A stretch of 63,968 bases of DNA, the filler included, from Circinaria calcarea (lineage: Eukaryota), in the NCBI GenBank assembly GCA_051942165.1. It is 4 parts of 4 records of this genome, joined end to end, with 100 filler letters (N's around TTAATTAATTAA, not from the genome) between each part and the next. Parts side by side here need not be neighbours in the genome. Positions count along the whole stretch, not along the records: positions 1 to 16,359 come from JAVECS010000325.1; 3 more parts are not named here. One strand, 5' to 3'. The notes under the pieces are model-generated. The model was not told where the DNA came from. It saw nothing but the letters and a program-made list of their open reading frames with translations, and did no database searches. Of this stretch, positions 1,710 through 40,139 are shown one piece after another. Numbering within the stretch: position 1 is the stretch's first letter; each line of letters opens with the position of its first letter. The position numbers and the translations under genes were made by a program.

Positions 1710-4049
1710 CTATCCGTATAATTCCCCAGTCCGGATCCGCTGGTAAGGAATATTCACCTGCGCCTGACCGTTGTACCTATAACCCGAAGTAGCTGGACCC
1801 TCCGGAACGAGACTAACCAAGTCCGTCGACAAGTCCCCGTCATCATCGTCTCGGAAAACCAACTCCAAATGATTCGGCTTCCCCTCGCCGTTCCCATCTG
1901 TGCCCGTCGCTCGAATCTCCGCAGTTCGAGAATAGGTCGTCAGGTTGCCAATCCCAGCACACGTGTTCATCAGCGTCTTTGCTGCCGGTCTCGAGTTCTG
2001 GGCCAACACCAAGACCTCCGTAAAGGTATCCCAGCATCCGGAACCGTTACGCTTCCATACGGTCCAAATAAAACTAGCCAAGGCAATGAGAGCGTGGGCG
2101 AACAGCACGGCCATAGAAAGGTAGTCCGTTGTCGCGCTTGCGAGGAATGAATAGCCCGTTATGATCACGCTCATGGTAAGGGTGGTGAAATTGCCTTCTG
2201 GCTTCTGAACGGCATTGCCTCCACGAAGTAAACTGTATCTATGATTGGAGTCCCATTGTAAGCTGGCTAGTGTCCAACTCTGCGGGTCAGGAGAATCGGT
2301 GTTGTAGAGCCGGGAACTGCCGCTTCTTGATAAGCCGTCAGCGATAACAGTGCCAATGAGGTATTCGAGGAAGGTGGTCCTATTGGTGGAGCCTGGGTTT
2401 TCAGTGTTCCACTGCTCCAATTGCGCCTGGGCACTTGACTGAGGTAAACCGGTAATAATGCCAGCTGCAGATGCAATATCTTCAAGCGTACTTGGCTGCT
2501 CCATATTGAAGTCGTTCCCGGAATCAGGGACAGGTGGTGCTAGCTTTTTCAGCCATTCGTTATCCAGTATGAGGGACTTCCCGGCCGTGTTATTTGTACT
2601 TGCAGCCCACACACCTTCACTGACTTGAAAAGTCGTGCCTCCGTCCCACCAAGCACCGATGCTACAGGTGACGATTAACCGTTTACTTTCCATTGATAAC
2701 CACGGTGCTTCGAATATCATGCCGATACTTACGTCCCCAAGGTCTTTTGACAGCCCGGTCCAACTAATCCTAAGCTTCTCTGTCCGTGACTTCTTGAAGG
2801 CGCTGACTCCAACCATTCTCATGGCTCCTTGTTCACCTGACAACACTGGAAATGCAAGTGTAGTTTGGTTTTGCTTGACCACTTGGGCTTGGCTACACAG
2901 TGGTCGTACCACCGCGTTCTTAGTATTAACGTTTGCCTTTTGGGCGATCAAGTACCTGTAGTTTGCAACACTGCTCGCTGGAGAATAAGTCTGAGAATCA
3001 ACAGCGGCGAACCATTCATCTCTCAATATTTGCTGTAGAACGATCGTCGCTGCATGGGGGCTAGTCATAAATGTTCCCCCAGGTACGAGGCCGCGCACAC
3101 TTCCCTGTAGCTTTTGATTCGGAATGCGGCCCATGGGACTTTCCACGGTGAGGCCAAATAACTGTGCAGAAATTCCTATTCTGTAGGCGCCATTGGATGC
3201 TCGAGATCTATCGAAGGAGGTCGAAAAGGGTGTGGCCTTGGTAAAATGTGCCCGCAGTGCATAATAGCCCCCACTCGGACAGACTGCGTAAAGCGTCGCG
3301 TTCGGTAAACCGCAAACGTAGCTATCTTGAGCCAGAGACATGTTGGATGGCCAGTTGTCTTCTATATTACCAGGCAGGTAGAAATCCGAGCCTCCGGCCG
3401 GCCAGTCTTGTATCCTTGGTATGAGAAGCACCGCGCAAGATGGTCCCGCTGTTGCTGCAATAATCCCGGCTATGACGAGAAATCCAAAGAATGAGACCTT
3501 CCGAACAATAGACATGCGACACTGAAAGCTGCCAATGAAATCCGGAGACCAGAAATAGCTCAACTGGCTAAAGGAGAATGCAGATGCAAGGAGCCCGAGA
3601 GGTATTCCTTCCCCAAACATCAACTCGTCCCTTACAATCTGCGTAACGACCATCGCGAGGCTTGCGACTATCAGAAGTTCTTGGATCTTAGCTGCTATTT
3701 GAAGCAGAGCGAGATTGATGTTATCATTCGAAATGAATCCGGATAGGCTTCTTCCAACGAAGAAATGATGCAGATTAAGGACTAACAAGGCGGTCGAAGT
3801 GAGAACTGGTAGGAGATGGAAACTGAATCGACAGATTTGGGCCCATTTCGAATTGACCAAGACTGGCTTGGGGACCTCCCTAGTTCGCCGAATACGTTGC
3901 CAGCATTGTTGAACGCTCAAAGTCAGAACTTCGAGACCATGAGCTCGGAGGAACGTTTTCCACAACGATAAGAAGTTGACGCCAGTGGGTATCCGTCCTG
4001 GAGGTATATTCGTCCGGTGTTTATATCTTCTGCCAGTATCTCCCACCAT
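1710..4049 (-). CDS. uncharacterised multi-pass fungal membrane protein (~780 aa)
   Basis: Long intronless ORF; first ATG at 4049 (MVGDTG; the track start at 4166 is a non-ATG codon). N-terminal hydrophobic segments include LQIAAKIQELLIVASL, followed by a large N-glycosylation-site-rich middle and a C-terminal TM (DYLSMAVLFAHALIALASFIWTVW). Confidence 0.75.
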   Translation of the reverse strand: MVGDTGRRYKHRTNIPPGRIPTGVNFLSLWKTFLRAHGLEVLTLSVQQCWQRIRRTREVPKPVLVNSKWAQICRFSFHLLPVLTSTALLVLNLHHFFVGRSLSGFISNDNINLALLQIAAKIQELLIVASLAMVVTQIVRDELMFGEGIPLGLLASAFSFSQLSYFWSPDFIGSFQCRMSIVRKVSFFGFLVIAGIIAATAGPSCAVLLIPRIQDWPAGGSDFYLPGNIEDNWPSNMSLAQDSYVCGLPNATLYAVCPSGGYYALRAHFTKATPFSTSFDRSRASNGAYRIGISAQLFGLTVESPMGRIPNQKLQGSVRGLVPGGTFMTSPHAATIVLQQILRDEWFAAVDSQTYSPASSVANYRYLIAQKANVNTKNAVVRPLCSQAQVVKQNQTTLAFPVLSGEQGAMRMVGVSAFKKSRTEKLRISWTGLSKDLGDVSIGMIFEAPWLSMESKRLIVTCSIGAWWDGGTTFQVSEGVWAASTNNTAGKSLILDNEWLKKLAPPVPDSGNDFNMEQPSTLEDIASAAGIITGLPQSSAQAQLEQWNTENPGSTNRTTFLEYLIGTVIADGLSRSGSSRLYNTDSPDPQSWTLASLQWDSNHRYSLLRGGNAVQKPEGNFTTLTMSVIITGYSFLASATTDYLSMAVLFAHALIALASFIWTVWKRNGSGCWDTFTEVLVLAQNSRPAAKTLMNTCAGIGNLTTYSRTAEIRATGTDGNGEGKPNHLELVFRDDDDGDLSTDLVSLVPEGPATSGYRYNGQAQVNIPYQRIRTGELYG

Positions 4050-4953
4050 GATATCGCATGCGAGGTATTCTATACGTCCTAAGCTCGACGTCGTAAAATC
4101 TGTGGTGCTTGGGGTCCAAGGTATATACAGAGGCAGAAAAATCAAAAAACAGGAAACTGCAAGCAAGAAACTGATTTTATCGATAGCCGAAGGTTATCTG
4201 GACAAGATATGACGAAAGATGAGGGAGTTGAATGGCTGAGTTGTAGAAAGAGTAGGGTAGCACGAGGGCGACATAAGAAACGCAGACTCCAGTCCATTGC
4301 ATCCACAGCGCTAAAAGCAGGCTGACTTTATGCACAGGTATGGCGCAGCCACATGTAGTTTCATATTTCAAAGTGCGTCGGTTTGAGTATTTTGTAAATA
4401 TACAAATGGGGATAGTAACAAAGGCTTTGACCGATGTCTGGGCCGGGCGGGGACGAGATATTGTGTGTATAGACTTTTCATTTTCCAATGAAGCCGTACC
4501 ATACACGAAGAAATTGAAGCATAATTTCGATTCCGACTGCGAATCCGAGGGAGCATGACCACGCACTCTCCGTGTTCGAATATTCTTCCTCTGATAGTCA
4601 CTCTTGCACAACTTCAACTAAGCCTTGGTCATTTCTAATACTCCATCAACAACATCATACCATGAAAGACGGCTCGAGCCTAACGAGTACAACTTCAAGT
4701 TGCTACCGGCTGCGAGGATGTAAGTAATATAGAGGAGAACGGGTATCCGCCCACGATCTGCAGACGCCAAGTATTGTATTGCTCCCCTCAAGACTCAAAT
4801 CCGAGGGAGGAAGATCGGGTGAAAGACGGTGATTGGCCTTTCTAAATCATGGGGTTAGGTGACGGTATGGTACGGAGTAAAGCTCGCCCCGACCACATCG
4901 GAGCTAACACCACGCGCTAATGATAACGGCTGAGTGTGCTTGGGATCAATCTA

Positions 4954-6851: not shown

Positions 6852-6858
6852 TATATAT
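6852..6858 (+). promoter_or_regulatory. candidate TATA box of the Cys-rich peptide gene
   Basis: TATATAT about 125 bp upstream of the ATG at 6980, followed by a C/A-rich leader and a CAACC-ATG start context. Confidence 0.4.
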
Positions 6859-6979
6859 CTGGCGTCCGTCCCTCCTCTAATGCCTACCTGAACCCAAATT
6901 CCACATCCAACCCAGAGTCCAAAACAACCCTTTCACTCGAACGTTCCGACCCGAAAAAACCCTTTGAAAGTCTCCAACC

Positions 6980-7512
6980 ATGCAATTCCACCACCTCGTT
7001 CTCCTTCTCACAGCCGCCGCAGTCCAGCTAGGCTATGTGGCAGCGCAGCATTGCACTCATCAAAGTGTTCGTCACCCCCAACACTCTCGCTTGAACACAA
7101 TACGCAGTTCTTCAATACAACTCTCCTTCACCAACCTTAGTTCTCCGCCTTCGCTAACTTTCTTCTCTCTATAGTCGTCACCTCCATTGACCCAACCCCT
7201 CTCACCCCTCCCCTTTTTACAACCCAAACTAACCTCGCCCCCCTTCCTCTACCAATAGGTTGCATAGACGTCTGCGGCTGCTGGCGAGCTAGGGTACCGT
7301 CATCCATTTCCTACGTCTCATTTCCCTCCCTTTTTTCCAATTCGAATCTCTCCAGTTCCTCCCCCTTTTTCCTTTGGCACCTCACCTTTCCTTCCCGATT
7401 CTGACCCTTTGATTCAAAAAGAGAGGGTCGCTGACGTTGGAAATAGTGCTATACCGATTGCTCGAGCGGACAGTGCCTTGGAAAATGCGATTGCTTCTTA
7501 TGCAACAACTAG
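6980..7512 (+). CDS. small secreted cysteine-rich peptide (61 aa, 10 Cys), 3 exons
   Basis: Exons 6980-7064, 7259-7293 and 7447-7512 total 186 nt and give MQFHHLVLLLTAAAVQLGYVAA-QHCTHQSCIDVCGCWRARCYTDCSSGQCLGKCDCFLCNN*. Branch sites: GCTAAC 7153, ACTAAC 7228, GCTGAC ~7430. TAG acceptors end at 7174, 7258 and 7446. Confidence 0.85.
7065..7258 (+). other. putative [D2,3] spliceosomal twin intron (stwintron)
   Basis: GT (7065-66), then an internal intron GTTCGT...GCTAAC...TAG (7067-7174), then TCGT...ACTAAC...TAG (7175-7258). Excising the internal intron rebuilds the donor GTTCGT. Confidence 0.7.
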
Positions 7513-9488
7513 GAGTAAAGGGCGGGAACGAGCTTTCGGAAAGGGGTCACGAAAGGCAGAGAGGATAGGAGAGATTTGGTAGGAGAAATGGGGAGTCAGT
7601 GATGGGGAAGGCAAAACAGGGCAAAGTGATGGGATTTCGTTCGATGGGTGGGGAGATTGTATAGTCAGATGCAAAAGCGAGGTAGCGCAATCATTTAACT
7701 TCAGCCCCCCCCGCCCCCCGACTCTTCTACTCGCTTAGAAGGCTACCATCCGAAAAATACCTCGATCAGGCATTTGAAGTAGACGAGGCTCTGCCCATGA
7801 ATCCTGTAATAGCTGCGACAACCCCCTCTGATGAAGAGCCACTTTCCTCCACGATGTTAACATGAACCCATACTGAGGGGTTGCAAGAAATACTTCACGG
7901 TGGTAACTTCCCAACCAAAGTCATTACCTCCGCAATGGAACAATATGCCTCTAGCAGTACAGGGGGGGGGGAAATGGGTCAAATGGCCCATTTCGCACAA
8001 AATTGATATGTACCGAGATAATCCAACCCCCCCCCCACCAGCTTTGAAATCTAACTAACGGATTTTTTAAACCTCCCACAATTTCATCATCGAACGAACC
8101 AAAGCCAATAATAAAAATTTTTTCTTTTTTTTTTTGGGCGCTTAAAAAGCCTGGTAGATAGATATCCATGATTTTTTGCTGCTTGTTTACGATCCCGAAG
8201 CTAAGATTCTCCGTATGAAAAAATCCGGGGCTGGGAAACACGTGTTCCAATTAGCCGAAGATGAGGTGGGTACCCTTAACCAGGCTCATGATTTCTTTTT
8301 GGGGGGGGAGGTTGGATATCACTTTCGATATTACCCACGTTGCCTTGGACGTTGTTATCTCCAACTTGCGTCGGGGTCACCCCCTCCCCATTTTTTTAAC
8401 CCTTTGCCAGGTCTTGGATCTGCAAGTGATGCATCTTAGGTTCCTCGAGGTCGTTTGAGCTAGTTTCTTTAGAGCCAAAAGCCACCCGGAGATTCTCGGT
8501 GATATATCTTGAGTCAAAGCAATGTCTCCAATGAGACCAGGGAAGCTTCGACTCCGTCCTCAGCTACCCAAGCCTGTACGCAAGCAACCTTGGAACCCAA
8601 GAATGAGCGGAACATCCCCAACGGTATACAGACTGGTTGGCAAAATTCCGCTGAAAGCAGGATCACAACATACCTCCCCAACCTTATGTAAAGATAGCTC
8701 CTCCGACGATGTTCCTCGGCCTTGCCCTGCCCTCCGCTACACTCCAAAAGGGAAAAAAGTGCAAGCTTTCCGGCGGGAAGCTATACGATTCCACAATATC
8801 TTCCCTACCAACTGATTCCGAGTCAAGGGAAATCTAGAGAGAACCTTCACACTCGTTGCTCTGGAAGGAGTTTTACGAGAGGGCTAGCCCAAACAACGAC
8901 GTTGGACTCGAGTCAGCGGTTTCGCTACCGTCTTCAGAGCACTGCAGCCGATCATTCTTGACTTTGCATCTTTCTCCAGAAACAGTTCCAGCAGTTGAAA
9001 AGAGATGGACAGAGCGATGTTTACAATCAGCTTTTGCAGATCTTCATCCGGAACCGCGATTCCCGACCATGCCGCAGTTTGCGTTTATCAGTCAAACAAA
9101 ACCCATGAAAACCATATATACTAATTCATATCTCAAGATTCTTAGTGCATACAAACGGTAGTTGCAACCCACCGTCAGCATGAATAAACTCGTGCGCTGT
9201 ACTCCGTGGGGTGGCGTAAAAAGCCTGAGTCTTGGCAACATGAGCTCTAAACGAAGCTCCCTTCATAACACATGACATATAGAGTAGGTCGTACCTTGAA
9301 TAACCAAACTCAGCTGCTTCCCCCAGTTGGATTTAACTTAGCGGACCTCGACAATTGAGGCACGAGTTGGAGTTGTTCCTTGCTATCCGATGATCAAGTT
9401 TGCCTTTCGAGGGCTAGGAGCTCTCAAGTATACTACTGTTTGTAACAATAGCCATACAAGATCCCAAAGCATCTCAGAAAAGCCTTGG

Positions 9489-22585: not shown

Positions 22586-23943
22586 CTAGCGATTGCATGC
22601 CGACACGGGGATTCCCTTTCTTACGGCTAGCCAGGTGCAGGTCTTAAGTTCGACCGTGGGGTTCGTCCATGGTTCGATTTGTTGGAATACGGTGATGTTA
22701 GCGTGTGCGGGCAGGGCGTTTAGTCCCGTGGTATCACTTTTCCGTTTAATCAGGCGACCGCTGAGTCTAGCTTGCGGAGGCCTGTAGTAAGCTCTACCCC
22801 CTCGAGCCGCTTGCAGTGGGTGCTGGACGCAGGTGTTGAGAAGTGTAGACATGGCAGCCCGAATTTGAGCCCAGGTGAGGATGATGTTATGCGTGGCGGA
22901 GATGGCGAGATAGCATGTCTCTAGGCCGGGAGTGTTAGTTGGAGAACATACAGCAAACAAAACACAGCGCGCTTACTGGAATGAAGGAATGTGACGAGTC
23001 CCGGGCCGACTTTCAGCGTATCAGATGCAGGCTGCAGTTGCTCCCATTCGATATTTGTGCAATCAGCTTCAGAAGGGCTGCCCAGTCCCATATCACATTC
23101 ATAGGCCATTTCTTGGGGAACCACTGCGCCCGCTTCCCACCATGTTCTCGAACCTCTTCGTACCATACTAATCGACTGTCCCATCCATGCGGTTGCTCTT
23201 TGACCAAAATCACCCCTAAGGTGAGCGGGAAGCTTATCACCCATAAGTGCTGACACGTAATAATCGTGAATTAGTAATGGGATTACAGGATCAGTATCTC
23301 CTGGTTTGTGCCACTGGGGCCGTGGGCCGCTGACAGTGACAGTGACAAACAAGCTCTCAGGCGCTATTGGTATCGTAATCAGCCGTTAGGATCAACGTGT
23401 ACTTCAAAGGTGCTGGTAAGTAGACCTTACTTTGATATGCAGGATTAGTTATATCCACCAGGGGATTGGTGACATAACTAAGGGTGTTTGAGAATCCGTG
23501 GGTTATAAACCCTCCCTCACCGGTATTGTACACACAATGTGCAATGATATAACCGGCCATGGAACGAAGCTGAGCCCGGTCAAAGTTAAGACGAGTGGCT
23601 GTGGTCGCAGGGCCGGCCTGCTCAATCGAAATATAGCATCCCCCTGTGAAGATGCCTGAGTCTCGATAGATGAAACTCACTCTAGCCCATTGATGCACTA
23701 ACCTTCACTAACTAGCAACGGTAAACGCGTTCCTTCATCTCCAACTCCTGCATTAGCAACATATGTATCCGTCGTAACGGAGATTTTCCGCGCGGCCAGC
23801 GAACATTCAGACACCGAGAGACCGGACCCATATGCCCCGTTGCATAAATGGAAGTCTGGAGGGACAGGTGCCCTTATAAGGTACCCTCCGGGGGCTGCCA
23901 TGTGTGCTTTCTGCTGGCTTGGAGATATCGAAACCATCTCCAA
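22586..23943 (-). CDS. lineage-specific Cys-patterned hypothetical protein, multi-exon, 5' end uncertain
   Basis: Four ORF pieces joined by GT-AG introns: CNGAYGSGLSVSECSLAA...RLPL|GCYISIE...AGYIIAHCV...GGFIT, then YECDMGLGSPSEADC...|TCYLAI...LLNTCV...GGRAYY. Further upstream exons up to ~24211 are possible. Confidence 0.65.
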
Positions 23944-26900
23944 TATCCGCAGTCATCCGTCCTTCATATAGATGGCTGATATTCAATTGCACAATACCCG
24001 CACCCACCCAAATTTGGCGGCCGCACCACGAAGCGGCTGCATAGAGAGCGCATACGCGGGATGAGATGGGATGAGCGGGATGAAAAACGAAACGCCGATC
24101 AGGTTTCAGGGTTACGCGCACATACAGACAGTCCAAATTACAGAAGAGATGCAAACCACGTTGAGGTGGCCGCCTGCGTCTCGTGGTAGTAAGAGAAGTA
24201 ATATTCACCATTCCAGGATTCGTCGTGGGAGATTTAGATGTCGGAGAGGTACTCGTTGCTTAGATGTCTGGAATAATCTTGAGACACTGCTGGGGTTAGA
24301 TTACCTCACGAGCCAAAAAACCCACTAACGGCGCCAAAGGGTACCAGTTTCATACTGCCTACGATCGCTCGTTCGAGGGGGCTAGATCTACGGTCCTCGC
24401 TACTTGTGTTCTATAATACTGTTTATGGTCCCGAAGGAAAGAAGAATGAGCTCGGGTAGCCGCGGTATTGGATCGCTGCCATGTCGGCAAGATTCTAGGG
24501 TACAACAATCTCGCCTTTGCACAGCGTTTTAAGACTTCATTCTTCTCCTGGAGCTTGGAGGTTGTTGATCCGTCAAACACTAGTCTACTGTTCTCCGTCC
24601 ATCTCCTACCATCGTCGTAATTATGATTCTTGTCGTTCGCTCTGAGAAACAATTCTCCTTTAAAGTAGATGTTACCTGAAAGGGAATTGTTGTAAGAATG
24701 ATAATGTCATCTTCGCTCTACAACGTCACCCCAACATCGTTCCCGTTTTACAGATTCATGGCTTCCACCGTGGTGTAAGGTATGAAATCTCGGCCCATTT
24801 ATGATTAGCAGATCGAATGCCGACCCTCGAAAGGGAGACGTAAAGGCTATCATAACTCACGGCGTCGACTCAACCAGAGAGTGTTACTATCCTTGCTTCG
24901 ATGATCTTTTCCCCTGCGACGTACGCATCTGTGGCGTTTGGGCTTGCTTACACTGCAAGCAATGGGGCGATAAAACATTTCTAACGAGGACTTTCCGGTA
25001 GACGAACCGCAACTGGCTCGATATCCCCACGACTTGATACACATGGTTAGTTATTTCTTTAGCTATAGGTGGAATGGAGGTTAGGATCTCGGCTATGGTG
25101 TTGGAGTCGAGGCCGCTTAAATAGTCGAGATGTTTGACGACTTGAGGGCTGCTTGGGTTTGTACGAGCTGGCAGCCGCACATCTTAGTGCAACGTTGACG
25201 GAGGTCTGGAGCCTGTGAAGCATTTTCTAGAAATGTTCCAGAGTCGAGGCCGGTGGGATCGGAATAGGGAAAACTGAGGGTATATGGAATGTACCTCGAT
25301 GGTAATGGGTAACGAGGATGTACGACTATGGTAAAATCGACCGCTCGGGAGAAGCTCTGAGTAGGAGAGCTAACATTAGGTGGCTGAACAGGTCATGCTA
25401 CATGACCTGACTTTTGATACCCGTCATTAGGGGATGACCTTTCCAGATGCCGGTAACTATACTCACTGTATGCCTCGAATTGCAAGATTTTATACTATCT
25501 AAATTCTGGAACCTCCTGGTCAGTTGTTGTATGGCAAAAAAGAGAAAGGAAGAAGTCTCTGCAGTCTCCTACAAAGTAATTGCCTAAGTGAGGTGTCATG
25601 ACACTGGTATTCATTATCGATATAAAGAGCGAGGGATAGGACATGTAAGTTAGTACACGAGGGACATTCTCGAAGGAGACAGGAAGCGCCGAAGCAAGCA
25701 CTATACTTTCAAGAAACTATGTGTTTCGTACATGAAGCAGGAATTCGAATTCACCTCGATCATAATAGCCTGCATACCCGCTTGCTAAGAATCTATACAC
25801 AACCAGAATCACAAGCCCTGCTTGTAGAAAATGAATGGACCTCGAATTATTAGAGCCACTACCCCAGGAATTGACTCACCAAACCCAATGTCCCTCAGCC
25901 TCCTACACCTGTATTGACACTCTTTATCAGCCCTTCATTACGGTGTGAGGAAGGTCATCGCATGCATCACCGCGTCCTCCGCAAACTGATATAGCTAAAA
26001 CGTCCTACTCATACATCGAGCCATCTCCATATAAGACTGATTCTCGTGTATCACCTCCATGAAAGGATCATACTACATCAACCGCCAGGATCTCGGCTCC
26101 TTCACGTCCAAAACCAAGAGTTCCACATAAAGCAATGTCAGGTTCCCTTTCGCGATTCAAGCAAGTAATCATCCTGGCCATTTCCTGCTCCCTCAAGTCG
26201 TACGCCGCCATCTTTTGGACAAGCTGCGTTGCTGACGGCTGTGAATTCAACGGGCTGGTTCGTCTGTGGTGAATACAAGCTCTGTAATCTGCACGGCTGT
26301 CTAACCTCGAGGCAAAAGGTATTGGCGATATTGTTCGCGGTGGGTTTTGTTATACATAGTCGGGTAGTTAAATTGCCTTCTGAATATAAATGTGAGGATG
26401 CTATTGATGTCCTCTATAGACGTGGTCGTTTCATAGTACAGACCCTTGAGCACGCCGCTTTCTGCAGCAGCCCAACGTACATCTCTCATCGTTTTTGATC
26501 ACGAGCTTGAGAAATCGGTCAGCGCTAAATGCCTTCTTCATAGGGCACTACGGCTCTGAGGTATGCGGAATTCAGGAGCTTTAAGATAGCTGGGTTCTTG
26601 TTGGCGATTCCGGTTATGATACATGAGGTAATCGAGCGTGGTCGATTTAGAAAGGCCGGGGAACCTAGATAAGATTATAGGATTGCAAAGCTAAAGAATA
26701 AAGAAGAAGAATTTGGGAGACCTCTCTAGAGATATATATATATTACTCTGTGCCATAATACTGACATTCATCGTGGGCATAGACGGAAGATGTGAAAGAT
26801 GCGGTTTGACTTATTTATATTCATAGGCCTTAGCTCAGCTAAAGCTGACTGAATGAAAACATAATATAAATGTATGCCGTTACTGGTCAATAGCAGACCG

Positions 26901-29607: not shown

Positions 29608-32600
29608 ATGGCCAACGATGGCCGCCTGATCCTGAACCACTACAATATATCCAACCCATTCCCTACTGAGTGGCCAGCCGAGAACGATGACAGCGATACC
29701 TCCGAACCTGACATCCCCCTCAAAGCTGCCACACAGCTTGCACACAGCAAATCAAGATCAAGATATACAGTCCTCGAGCGCAACGGTGGCGATCGGCGTA
29801 GCCTGGTACCTGGGTCAGAGAAGACCAGGGACGGAGTGGAGAACCTGGTGCAGAGGGATGAGCCCGACCCACTGGGAGCTACAGACAGTGTGGTACGGGC
29901 CCTGAGACAGAAAGGACTATCTGTGGATGACGACCAACGCTTGAGTAAGAGCAGCATCCTCATTAACACCTCTCCAGTGAACTGAAACAAACTCCCAGGG
30001 AATCGCTTTTTACTATCCTCAACCACGTTTACACCCACTCTGTACCTATCGCAGGTACACTCAGCTGCCTCAACACAGTCCTTGTTACAAGGTCTCGAAT
30101 ACCTCTCACAATCGATCGACCAGAAATCTGCCTCCCTAAAGGTGCTTGTGGAATCGAACTTCGAACGCTTCGTCCGAGCAAAGAGCACAATTGATAATGT
30201 TTACACTGAGATGAGGAATCAAGGAAACGAACCTCAAATCGAGAAACCCCGAACACATTCTCGCCATGCGAGTCGAAACAGCACACACTTCAGGAATATC
30301 AGCGGCCAGGGTCTCCCAGCTCCTGGTGTAGCTTTTCAAAAGGCTCCTCCAAACGACAAGAAGAAGCATGCTTTGACCAAAGAGAGCGAGTATGGTGTGC
30401 AGGGGATCAAGGTGCCACTGATAGAAGTCGCTGTGAAAGCAGAGGAAGTCTGGGGTCCCGCTTTGGGTGGTAGAGATCGAGAACAAAACCTCAGAATGAT
30501 ACTCGGATCGATTGAAAAGTCACAAGGTGTTTTCGAGGTTGGGGTTGCAATATCGGATTGCATAAAGCGCAAAGACTACGATAAGCTGGTGAAAGAGTAT
30601 TCAAGAGCGCGGAGGTATGCAGATGATGCCCGAAAAACTGCAGATGTAGCAATTCACAACTCTTCACCACTTACGGAACCCCAAGTACACCAAATCGTCT
30701 TGTCTGGACGTATGTGGCTCCAGGTGGAAGATCAGATTGATGCATTCAAGCGGGAGGTGTGGCGGAACCTCACCAGTTTCCAGGCGAATTTAGCAATGTC
30801 CACAGATCGGAGCCACCAAGAAGATCACATGACGCTCATTGGCGTTCTTTTAGAGTTGGGCGTAGAAGATAACCCTATTTGGGTCTGGTTATTGAGCCGA
30901 TACGATTACTTGAAAAATAAAATCAACTCAACTTTTGCACGGTCGAGAGTCGAAATTGAGGTACTCAGAAGACGGGTGGCAAACGCAGAAAAACCGAGTC
31001 CGTACCTCTCTGCGATACATCTTAAAGGCGCAACTCGACAAAGCTCGGAGGATGTGGCCAAGCAGCTTGATACAAAGCCCGTGTTAGAGCTCTGGAATCT
31101 CATATATCAGTCTTTAAGTAACCTTCTTTCGGTGCAGGGGGGGTTGCTAGGAGAAGTCATTGATTTCTGGAGTAGAGCCCAATCATTCATAGATGGCAAC
31201 GCACAGAGAGTACTTCCGACGGGGATAGATGGAAGCAGCCGAAAGCATCATCGCCTCTCAAGTGATGGAACTAGAGACCTGCAGAAGGGGGCATTAGAAC
31301 TTGTTGATCTTTTGCGGGAAAACGTTTTTTCTTTTTTCGCAGACCCTCCGATCGAGGACATCTCTAGCCTATACTCACCAGTACCCGCTGATACCCCAAA
31401 TACACCACGCTCCGCTACAATTTCTCCCTTTTCACAACCAGAACATCGCTTTCGGCTTGATCTACTGAGTCCCCCGCCGCCATCTCCGAAACGAGGTGAA
31501 TATTGGGAGGAATTCGCGTTTTGGCCTCCTTATGCCAACTCTCTCAGTGGTGTCTATTATCTTGGAAAGATTATGGACTTACTAGGAATCGCCACTATCG
31601 AGATGGCTTTTATAAGTCCGGTATCTCCTGGAAGCCCTGAACAGGAGAAGCTCAAGCACTTAGTGGGGGGCGCCCGAGAAAGGTCTTTGCGAGTTATATG
31701 TGCTGCCTGGAGCGGAGATGCCGAGAAATGCAAGATGCTGGAGGACTGGACGCGCAAATCTGACCAATCCGATCTGACGCGGATGCCTGCGCATTTCGCT
31801 GCCATCGAATCTTTTGTCCTATCAGGAATTCAGAAGATTGTATACATCAGCAATGTAGTTAACACACAAAAGAATACTACCGGTATCGTCACGCCACCTC
31901 CGAACAAGCTCGTGCAAATGATGAGGACCCAGTTTGTAACGAGCTTATACAAGGCCTTGGCGGGGATGGTAGAGAACGCAGAAAAGCCTGTAAATCTTGA
32001 TCGAGATCCTTGGACGGCTGATCAAGGTTTGAGCATTGATCAGCAAAGCCAGAGAGGATCTGTAGATCCGAACAGGGATACGATTGATACGAGTAATAGG
32101 GTATGTTATTCTTCGTTTTGGTTGGTGTATTCCCTACTAACGTGAGCTAGAACCTACGGATGTTGTTAACCTTGAGCAACCTCAAGGCCTTACAAACGGA
32201 GATCGTGCCCCAACTGGTCAGTCAATTTGAGGCCGACTTTTCTGTCAAACTTACCGACGAGTGCAAAACTATCTATGATGTCCTCGGGCAAATTGATAGG
32301 CGCCTTTTCCAGTCCTATATACGTCCAACAGAGGAGAGGCTATCCACCATTATACGCAACGGTATTTCATCTCCTAAATGGCCACCAACCACCGAGCGCC
32401 CGACGGAGGTTAGACCATACGTTTACGAAGGTTTGCTATTGCTTGTCTACATCCATACCGAAGTCTCGACCACTGCTGCGACCCTTACCCCACAGATCTT
32501 GTCGTATCTGCTTGAGCATATCGTGTCTTCACTACTCCAAGCCTTCAAAATGCGCTCAAAATACAACTTAGCTTCCATGATGCAGGCTACCCTCGATGTT

Positions 32601-32797
32601 GAATTCTTTGCCCAGACGCTAAGTCAGTATAATACCGACCGCGCCAGCGAGATTACAAGTCAGGTATACCTAGAGCTCGATCGAGGAAATGACAGCGATT
32701 TAAAGAATCGTTTGGAGGTCGAGTTGCCAGAGATGAGTGCAACGCTGAAGAGATTGAGGGAAGCCGCGCGAAATGAGTTCGCTTGCTTCAAGAAACA
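29608..32797 (+). CDS. SEC5: exocyst complex component Sec5, last codons cut by linker
   Basis: LVQRDEPDPLG, RNRFLLSSTTFTPTLYLSQVH, LKVLVESNFERFVRAKSTIDNVY and MQATLDVEFFAQTLSQY. Introns ~29945-29998 and 32101-32150. Confidence 0.93.
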
Positions 32798-32897
32798 NNN
32801 NNNNNNNNNNNNNNNNNNNNNNNNNNNNNNNNNNNNNNNNNTTAATTAATTAANNNNNNNNNNNNNNNNNNNNNNNNNNNNNNNNNNNNNNNNNNNN
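32798..32897. other. artificial contig linker
   Basis: N44-TTAATTAATTAA-N44. Confidence 0.97.
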
Positions 32898-38354: not shown

Positions 38355-40139
38355 ATGGCACTCGCTTCTCTGGTTAGAATTGTGGCGATCATAGTGCTAT
38401 CTTCTGCGCGGATACAGGCTCAAAGTTATAATGGGCTGGCGGTAACTCCCGCTATGGGATGGGTCTGTGCTGTGTGTTAAAAGACTAGAAGAATACAAGA
38501 CTGATATGTATAGAATAACTGGAATGCATTCGCCTGTGATGTTAGCGAGGATCTCCTTCTTGGAACTGCGGAAAAGATAGTTGATTACGGGCTGCACGAT
38601 CTTGGCTACAATTATGTTATCCTGGACGACTGCTGGTCTGTCGGACGGACTTCGAATGGCACCCTCCAACCCAACATGACGAGGTTCCCTAACGGCATTG
38701 GCCATGTTGCGAACCAACTCCACAGTATGGGCCTGAAGTTTGGCATGTACTCGTCAGCCGGGCTCTACACCTGTGCCAGATATGCTGCATCATTGGGAAA
38801 AGAGGTACAGGATGCGCAGACTTTCGCAGATTGGGGGGTTGATTATCTGAAGTGTGGGTAGAGATGAAAATGGAAAACCCGATGGAGCATGGAATTAACG
38901 CATACAGACGACAACTGCTTTAACGAGGGACAAGCAGGAACGTCGTTGATCACCTACAATCGGTACAATGCCATGTCGAAAGCCTTGAATCAGACAGGCA
39001 GGCCTATTCTTTACTCCATGTGTAACTGGGGCGAGGACAAACCTTGGAACTGGGCTCAGACGATAGCGAATTCCTGGCGAATGTCTGGGGATATCTACGA
39101 TTCGTTTGACCGACCCGAGTAGGTTGAGGCATCAGGCTCCATCTACTGCAAGGTCATTAAAACACTGATACTTGCGGCAATAGCGAACGATGCCCCTGTA
39201 GCGGAGACCAAGGTTACGACTGCGCTCTTCCAGGCTCCCATTGTTCCGTGATGAACATTCTTAACAAGATGGCAGCTATCCAGAGCAAATCCCAAAGTGG
39301 CGCTACCAATGATATGGATATGCTTGAAGTTGGGAATGGAGGGTGAGCGTGGTTGGACCGCGGACTATAGAAATGGTACATGCTGATACCAACTCAAGGA
39401 TGACGGATGATGAATACAAGCTGCATTTCTCCATGTGGTGAGACTGATACCGCGCCCGCAAGAACTATTATTTAATCAATAGGAAACTAATCCGTCGACC
39501 CACCCACATAGGGCATTCATGGTCTCCCCCCTAATAATGGGCACCGACATCCGAAAAATGAGCCCGGAAACCCTCTCCATCTACTCCAACCCCGCCATCA
39601 TCGCCCTAAACCAAGATCCCGCAGTCTCGGCCGGGATCCGGGTCTGGCGCTACTACGTCGACGATATCGATCAATACGGCCAAGGCGAAATCTCCCTCTG
39701 GAGGCGAACTCTCTCCAACGGCGATGTAGCCGTCGCTTTGGTCAACGCAGGCAACGAGACGCGAGAAATGAACGCCACACTGGGCGATATCTTTCTCGAC
39801 TCCGGCTCGACGCGGTCGCCGCGCGCGATGGAGACGTGGGATGTATATGACCTGTGGGCGAACCGGATGGACGATGCCACCGCAAGCTCGATTATCACTG
39901 GCAACGCGACTGTCAACGGTACGGTAATGGAGACTAGGAATAGTACGACGAAGTACAATAGTACGGCCATGAGCTATGCGGATGGGTTGGCCATGAATCA
40001 TCCGGCGCTGTTTGGTAGGAAGACGGGGACGATTGTGCCAATGGGGACGCTGAGAGCGACGGTTCCGAGGCATGGGATTGGGCTGTTTCGGATTCGGTCG
40101 CAGGGTGGAGCGGGGGCAAGGAAGAGGGATGAGCTGTGA
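38355..40139 (+). CDS. secreted alpha-galactosidase, glycoside hydrolase family 27
   Basis: Signal peptide, then NGLAVTPAMGW|NNWN, LDDCWS, DYLK|YDNC, WRMSGDI, NDMDMLEVGNG and SPLIMGTD. About five introns; C-terminus ends in RDEL. Confidence 0.94.

Follow-up and report, generated by a model that had tools for sequence, protein, structure and literature searches.

Spliceosomal twin introns (stwintrons) are established in the Pezizomycotina. They reveal a pairing of fungal splice sites that runs across the intron and follows a set order, and they serve as models for the birth and loss of introns. Nearly all known stwintrons are of the [D1,2] type, and other types are rarely met according to the authors in the field (PMC12403724). 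The [D1,2] stwintrons of the Hypoxylaceae and Xylariaceae include propagating "sister" stwintrons, as described in PMC9024468 and PMC12403724. The [D2,3] type has been reported for the biotin gene bioDA in the Sordariomycetes and Botryosphaeriales, where an internal U2 intron splits the external donor between bases 2 and 3 and two ordered splicing reactions are required; in its authors' reading, a host intron was there first, and the internal intron appeared in it or was inserted into it later (PMC5639578). For a reticulon-like gene of Lipomyces, nested [D4,5], [D6,7], and [D7,8] arrangements have been reported together with RT-PCR of the intermediates; duplication of the host donor was proposed as the source of the internal donor, and one-step and two-step removal were described as coexisting (PMC7138796).

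Here we describe a candidate [D2,3] stwintron from Circinaria calcarea (GCA_051942165.1), located at positions 7065-7258 of the stretch of DNA that we analyzed (63,968 nucleotides in total, called the window below). Stepwise removal is also a feature of recursive splicing in the long introns of animals, in which the upstream exon is ligated to an AG/GT ratchet point and a 5' splice site is regenerated. The route proposed for 7065-7258 would likewise be stepwise, with the first ligation regenerating a 5' splice site. Unlike in recursive splicing, however, a complete inner intron would leave first, and the upstream exon would keep two intronic bases until the second step.

The locus appears to be a gene of a filamentous ascomycete for a putative secreted cysteine-rich peptide, and it is presumably expressed. 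Its features are the following.

6853..6860, plus strand: TATA-like element about 120 nt 5' of the start codon, read from the sequence and putative in its role.
6980..7512, plus strand: predicted three-exon gene; its product, read from translations, has a signal-peptide-like N terminus and then ten cysteines.
6980..7064, plus strand: exon 1, with the ATG, a hydrophobic N terminus that resembles a signal peptide in its sequence, and the first cysteine; it ends in codon phase 1.
7065..7066, plus strand: GT, candidate bases 1 and 2 of the split external donor, from the sequence and the motif model.
7067..7174, plus strand: candidate internal intron of 108 nt, with donor GTTCGT (7067-7072), branch element GCTAAC (7153-7158), and acceptor TAG (7172-7174).
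7175..7258, plus strand: remainder of the candidate external intron, with donor tail TCGT (7175-7178), branch element ACTAAC (7228-7233), and acceptor TAG (7256-7258).
7259..7293, plus strand: exon 2, 35 nt, with three cysteine codons.
7294..7446, plus strand: intron 2, 153 nt, phase 0, with donor GTACCG, branch element GCTGAC (7431-7436), and acceptor TAG (7444-7446).
7447..7512, plus strand: exon 3, 21 codons including six for cysteine, followed by the stop codon TAG.

The start codon of the gene lies in a good context. When 7064 is joined to 7259 and 7293 to 7447, the spliced product has 61 residues and ten cysteines, every one encoded by TGC; in the translation, the ten are held within about 38 residues. 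The spacing C-x4-C-x3-C-x-C is present twice, once across the junction of exons 1 and 2 and once inside exon 3, and the first of the two is obtained only with complete removal of 7065-7258. For intron 2, the only in-frame alternative donor lies within exon 2 (GTCTGC at 7270), and its use would lose two cysteines and break the repeated spacing.

The first intervening sequence of the gene (7065-7258) is 194 nt long. A preliminary description of this DNA had proposed that a complete intron lies inside another one's donor here, and all of the coordinates and motifs that it gave are present and exact to the base. The internal donor has G at position 1, T at position 2, and G at position 5; it is followed by a branch element that fits DYTRAY and, at a normal distance, by an acceptor that fits HAG, with a 13-nt spacer between branch element and acceptor that contains no AG. 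The internal intron separates base 2 of the external donor from base 3, and its removal makes a canonical donor: once the 108 nt are gone, GT (7065-66) and TCGT (7175-78) together read GTTCGT, so that the external and internal donors are identical, and the external intron measures 86 nt. The external intron has a branch element and an acceptor of its own, with no AG between ACTAAC at 7228 and the TAG ending at 7258; its spacer of 22 nt falls within the limit of 25 nt used here and compares with 4 to 20 nt in the published model.

By translation, excision of 7065-7258 keeps the frame into the cysteine-rich exons, whereas splicing 7067 directly to 7258 leads to a stop codon, as does a model with a 2-nt microexon; all of this bears out the preliminary description. 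Its further statement, that the frame survives removal of 7065-7174 alone with the gain of a Pro/Thr-rich stretch, was also correct. We enumerated the chains of up to three introns that preserve an open reading frame. Among the 284 chains were two in-frame alternatives beyond those described earlier, namely, removal of 7067-7140 and use of the exon 2 donor at 7270. A route of the [A2,3] type by way of the GT at 7174 was rejected, as it gives a frameshift or a stop.

The proposed mechanism would begin with U1 and U6 picking GTTCGT at 7067 over the overlapping GTGTTC at 7065, a far poorer match. By intron definition, the donor at 7067 would pair with the nearest branch site (GCTAAC at 7153) and acceptor (TAG at 7174), releasing the inner intron of 108 nt. 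Ligation would bring the GT at 7065-66 beside the TCGT at 7175-78 and so produce a second GTTCGT donor, which together with ACTAAC at 7228 and the TAG at 7258 would allow removal of the remaining 86 nt. In the end state, 7064 would be joined to 7259 in frame. The two steps would presumably follow one another in this order.

Comparison with the described systems places the candidate nearest in type to bioDA, which was published as a [D2,3] stwintron (PMC5639578), in agreement with the earlier statement that the type is a known one. As described in that report, bioDA shares with 7065-7258 the split between bases 2 and 3 and the interpretation as an internal intron in an older host intron. The bioDA stwintron, however, is found in a conserved enzyme gene, was shown experimentally, and is reported as conserved class-wide (PMC5639578), whereas 7065-7258 is predicted from its sequence in an orphan gene for a cysteine-rich peptide. 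Unlike bioDA, 7065-7258 has two identical donors (GTTCGT) and a paralogue of its host intron, intron 2, in the same gene. The Lipomyces structures resemble it in the nesting close to the host intron's 5' end, and the two units of 7065-7258 are 13/14 identical over their first 14 nt. The Lipomyces structures retain an outer donor that is intact or almost intact, whereas the uninterrupted 5' end of 7065-7258, GTGTTC, appears to be an implausible donor; the split positions also differ. With the [D1,2] stwintrons of the Hypoxylaceae and Xylariaceae, the candidate shares the donor-disrupted class and the same motif logic. Unlike the "sister" stwintrons among them, it is split at another position, has no similar copies in the window, and lacks terminal symmetry and a stable fold (no unusual RNA fold or terminal symmetry was found in the intervening sequence; z = -0.69). 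We regard 7065-7258 as a plausible, well-formed prediction of an already published type rather than a demonstrated case; its possible contribution is a split type that is seldom met, in a secreted-peptide gene that is an orphan, with a trace from which the origin of the nesting can be read.

Next, we assessed how often such nested signals are expected by chance. The published [D1,2] search model, with its 24 donor hexamers, the branch element DYTRAY, and the acceptor HAG as given in PMC9024468, was recast for [D2,3], and the limit on the distance from branch element to acceptor was raised from the published 4 to 20 nt to 25 nt. With both strands of the window scanned, the [D2,3] model gave a single match, at 7065, and the [D1,2] model gave no match in the window. 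In random windows of the same size from a second-order Markov model (n = 100), there were on average 0.33 [D2,3] matches, with at least one match in 28 of the 100. Because 0.33 matches are expected per window by chance, the [D2,3] motif alone is neither rare nor significant at the scale of the window. At the scale of the intron, the full nested model was matched by about 5 in 1,000,000 random introns drawn from the intron's own composition with the real 3' end. When the real first 8 nt were given, an internal branch element, an acceptor, and a donor tail occurred together in 0.3% of 200,000 trials if the interior was shuffled and in 0.8% if it came from a first-order Markov model.

Since the same bases are excised whether 7065-7258 is removed in one step or in two, the two routes are told apart by the donor they employ. 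For removal in one step, that donor is GTGTTC at 7065, which has neither G at +5 nor T at +6; the overlapping GTTCGT at 7067 has both. The authors of the stwintron model accepted 24 hexamers, each accounting for more than 0.6% of genuine donors; GTTCGT is on the list as given there, and GTGTTC is absent from it (PMC9024468). We then counted donors in a table of Neurospora crassa introns (PMC4408805, supplement 6), which consists of two sheets of 15,946 rows each and holds every intron once per sheet. Over both sheets, the string GTGTTC occurs 2 times (1 intron) and GTTCGT 512 times (about 256 introns). The same table has 24 occurrences of GTACCG (about 12 of approximately 15,900 introns), 20 of GTCTGC, and 6,165 of GTAAGT.

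For comparison within the window, we used 10 reference introns anchored by the continuity of Pfam domains across adjacent open reading frames. They lie in the genes for Sec5, an old-yellow-enzyme-type reductase, an aldo-keto reductase, an RRM/zinc-finger protein, an actin-related protein, a CRAL-TRIO protein (two introns), an alpha-galactosidase, and an NAD-isocitrate dehydrogenase (two introns). All 10 carry G at +5, with donors of the form GT[A/G]NG and lengths of 49 to 135 nt, a count to be read knowing that the choice among frame-compatible GT-AG pairs relied on Pfam coordinates and conserved motifs and was not blind to the splice consensus. Sets of introns derived from pairs of open reading frames and from path enumeration were too ambiguous and were left out; the additional junctions between such pairs were not counted, because picking among them would lean on the splice consensus itself. 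The one-step donor GTGTTC resembles none of the 10; this comparison and the Neurospora counts are proxies, drawn from other introns and from another species. The T at +3 of GTTCGT, for its part, occurs in none of the 10 reference introns. The alpha-galactosidase intron (38852-38907) also opens with a pair of overlapping donors, GTGT, and a conserved motif of the protein is kept only if the downstream GT at 38854 (GTGGGT) is used; it is a plain example of the choice of register by G at +5 in this genome.

Taken together, we consider a [D2,3] donor-disrupted stwintron at 7065-7258 plausible and the best-supported reading, with a probability of roughly 0.5. The interpretation given in the preliminary description was partly supported: the architecture fits it, and three independent points favor removal in two steps, namely, the rarity of the one-step donor, the G at +5 in all 10 reference introns, and the homology between the external unit and intron 2 set out below. 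A plain long intron, removed in a single step that pairs the weak donor GTGTTC with the distal acceptor and containing unused internal signals that are relics or chance matches, would yield the same product. Intron 2 needs GTACCG, which also has no G at +5, so that poor donors may be tolerated in this gene and the case against a one-step GTGTTC is the weaker for it; in addition, fungal spliceosomes are reported to be promiscuous, with more than 200 GTNNNN variants used in Neurospora (PMC4408805), and a nested intervening sequence of Lipomyces starkeyi is described as removed both ways (PMC7138796). We nevertheless judge single-step removal distinctly unlikely: its donor is that of 1 among approximately 15,900 Neurospora introns compared with about 256 for the overlapping hexamer, the reference introns have G at +5 without exception, and the splicing machinery would have to bypass a perfect proximal branch site and acceptor. 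An intron of 194 nt would also be longer than any of the reference introns, and even with the first 8 nt given, the nested signals would have to be explained by a coincidence seen in fewer than 1% of trials (0.3 to 0.8%).

The main mRNA might instead retain part of 7065-7258 as coding sequence, either with 7065-7174 removed (a Pro/Thr-rich spacer of 28 residues) or with 7067-7140 removed (an insert of 40 residues). Both routes are in frame up to the stop codon at 7510-7512, and the latter employs the good donor GTTCGT, but its acceptor, the TAG at 7140, lacks a branch element at a workable distance, and the former requires GTGTTC. Both would disrupt the C-x4-C spacing, which exon 3 shows a second time. 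Moreover, 7175-7245 is homologous to intron 2 and not to any coding sequence, and the open reading frame across it has no relative among 1.84 billion representative proteins, bar one low-complexity match. Partial retention as the main outcome therefore seems to us very unlikely. A different kind of explanation is that the locus is nonfunctional or mis-modeled, for example, an untranscribed or decaying lineage-specific open reading frame, possibly inactivated by the 108-nt insertion, in which case no splicing route matters. It would fit with the failure to find a homologue and with the departure of all three intron units from the window's 10 canonical introns, next to which they are long, rich in C/T, and atypical in their donors; the in-frame donor at 7270 would be in keeping with a mis-modeled exon 2. 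On the other hand, a TATA-like element precedes a start codon that lies in good context and opens a signal-peptide-like N terminus, the three exons are in frame with ten cysteine codons that are all TGC, an exact repeat of the cysteine spacing spans splice junctions, and perfect branch elements and TAG acceptors are present in all of the intron units. On balance, we hold a nonfunctional or wrongly modeled locus to be unlikely.

We also looked into the relation among the three intron units, for which a 5' module is shared as follows.

7067..7080, plus strand: copy 1 of the module, at the start of the internal intron; copy 2 consists of GT plus 7175-7186 and is 13/14 identical to it.
7294-7308, plus strand: a looser copy 3, at the start of intron 2, from a comparison of the three 5' ends.

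The external unit (7175-7245) aligns with intron 2 (7296-7367) with 56 of 85 columns identical, and MAFFT gives the same alignment. The local score of this comparison was reached by none of 1,000 dinucleotide-preserving shuffles (z = 3.8). The homology begins at the 5' ends of both and covers the first ~75 nt of intron 2; the sequence from 7175 onward therefore behaves as an older intron's body, the GT of which is now placed 108 nt upstream. This is the picture expected if the external unit is a preexisting host intron that received 108 nt. Between the inner and outer units, past the 4 nt that the model demands, the next 8 nt match at 7 of 8 positions (p ~ 0.004 by composition). Self-duplication of the whole intron was considered and rejected (the interiors of the inner and outer units are dissimilar, z ~ 0), and the rest of the window contained no further copy of the 5' module.

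These observations suggest that the structure arose when a segment of 108 nt, in which the host's first 14 nt were present as a copy, was inserted after base 2 of an older intron. Such a scenario fits both the proposal made for bioDA of an internal intron within a host intron (PMC5639578) and the donor duplication proposed for Lipomyces (PMC7138796), as those reports present them. The homology between the external unit and intron 2, together with the repeated C-x4-C-x3-C-x-C spacing, suggests further that the gene grew by duplicating a unit made up of an intron and a cysteine motif. In the fullest version of this history, which we offer as speculative and rather doubtful, the inner unit, the outer unit, and intron 2 would all be paralogues with a common 5' module (GT, T or AC, CGTCA...CCA), the gene would have grown by duplication of that intron-plus-cysteine-motif unit, and the stwintron would have formed when the host intron's 5' end was copied and, with new 3' signals, placed after donor base 2, a rare case other than [D1,2] caught near its birth by endogenous duplication. 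If true, it would be a natural test case for the birth of nested introns, and of new introns in general, without mobile elements.

If the [D2,3] reading is right, it would supply a second, independent case of this type and widen a picture dominated by [D1,2], in a young, fast-evolving gene for a secreted peptide, with a host intron that can still be recognized and a donor module present in duplicate. The gene would also make a compact minigene (<600 bp) for testing ordered splicing. For annotation, nested introns lead gene finders to miss small secreted proteins or to place them in the wrong frame.

Searches for relatives of the peptide were made with unspliced pieces of the gene. For the 64-residue read-through of exon 1, there was no candidate among proteins of 35 to 112 residues, and the 87-residue open reading frame at 7141-7401 gave a single low-complexity match, and nothing else, in the search of 1.84 billion representative proteins. 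Pfam gave nothing for the exon 1 peptide, the exon 3 peptide, or the 39-residue stretch at 7177-7293 that ends with exon 2. Matches by tblastn/blastn at 30689, 32646, and 46569 were rejected as paralogues, being chance matches within other genes. No relative of the peptide and, in the window, no paralogue was thus found with these queries, and the earlier reference to a gene family was not borne out, a result that is weak because the queries were unspliced pieces.

The surroundings of the gene in the window were described as well. The neighboring gene at 1713-4193 (minus strand) is long, has a single exon, and belongs to Pfam family PF28351. Close relatives of its product (77 to 84% identity) occur in only three assemblies, which suggests a sparsely sampled lineage; the named relatives are at 30 to 38% identity and come mostly from lichen-forming Lecanoromycetes. 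By way of this product, 30 distant metagenome loci were reached (29 to 41% identity), and no orthologue of the peptide gene was found in them. Some of the 30 contain a cluster of weak matches; one such locus was inspected and rejected as an orthologue. In the 3' flank of the peptide gene, at 7690-8040 and 8120-8300, there are several long homopolymers, made up of C, of T, or of 8 to 10 G.

Elsewhere in the window, the NAD-isocitrate dehydrogenase (IDH2) is about 90% identical to IDH2 of Leotiomycetes, Eurotiomycetes, and Dothideomycetes (among proteins of at least 444 residues). Two runs of N around a short AT-rich island at 32797-32893, flanked on one side by the end of the Sec5 gene and on the other by the 3' part of an actin-related gene on the opposite strand, look masked or withheld. 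At 22589-25392 on the minus strand, six or seven open reading frames of 90 to 150 codons follow one another in changing frames and have no Pfam match; they probably form a multi-exon gene, in which two junctions have canonical short introns (GTAAGC at 22976 and GTAAGG at 23430) and the others are ambiguous.
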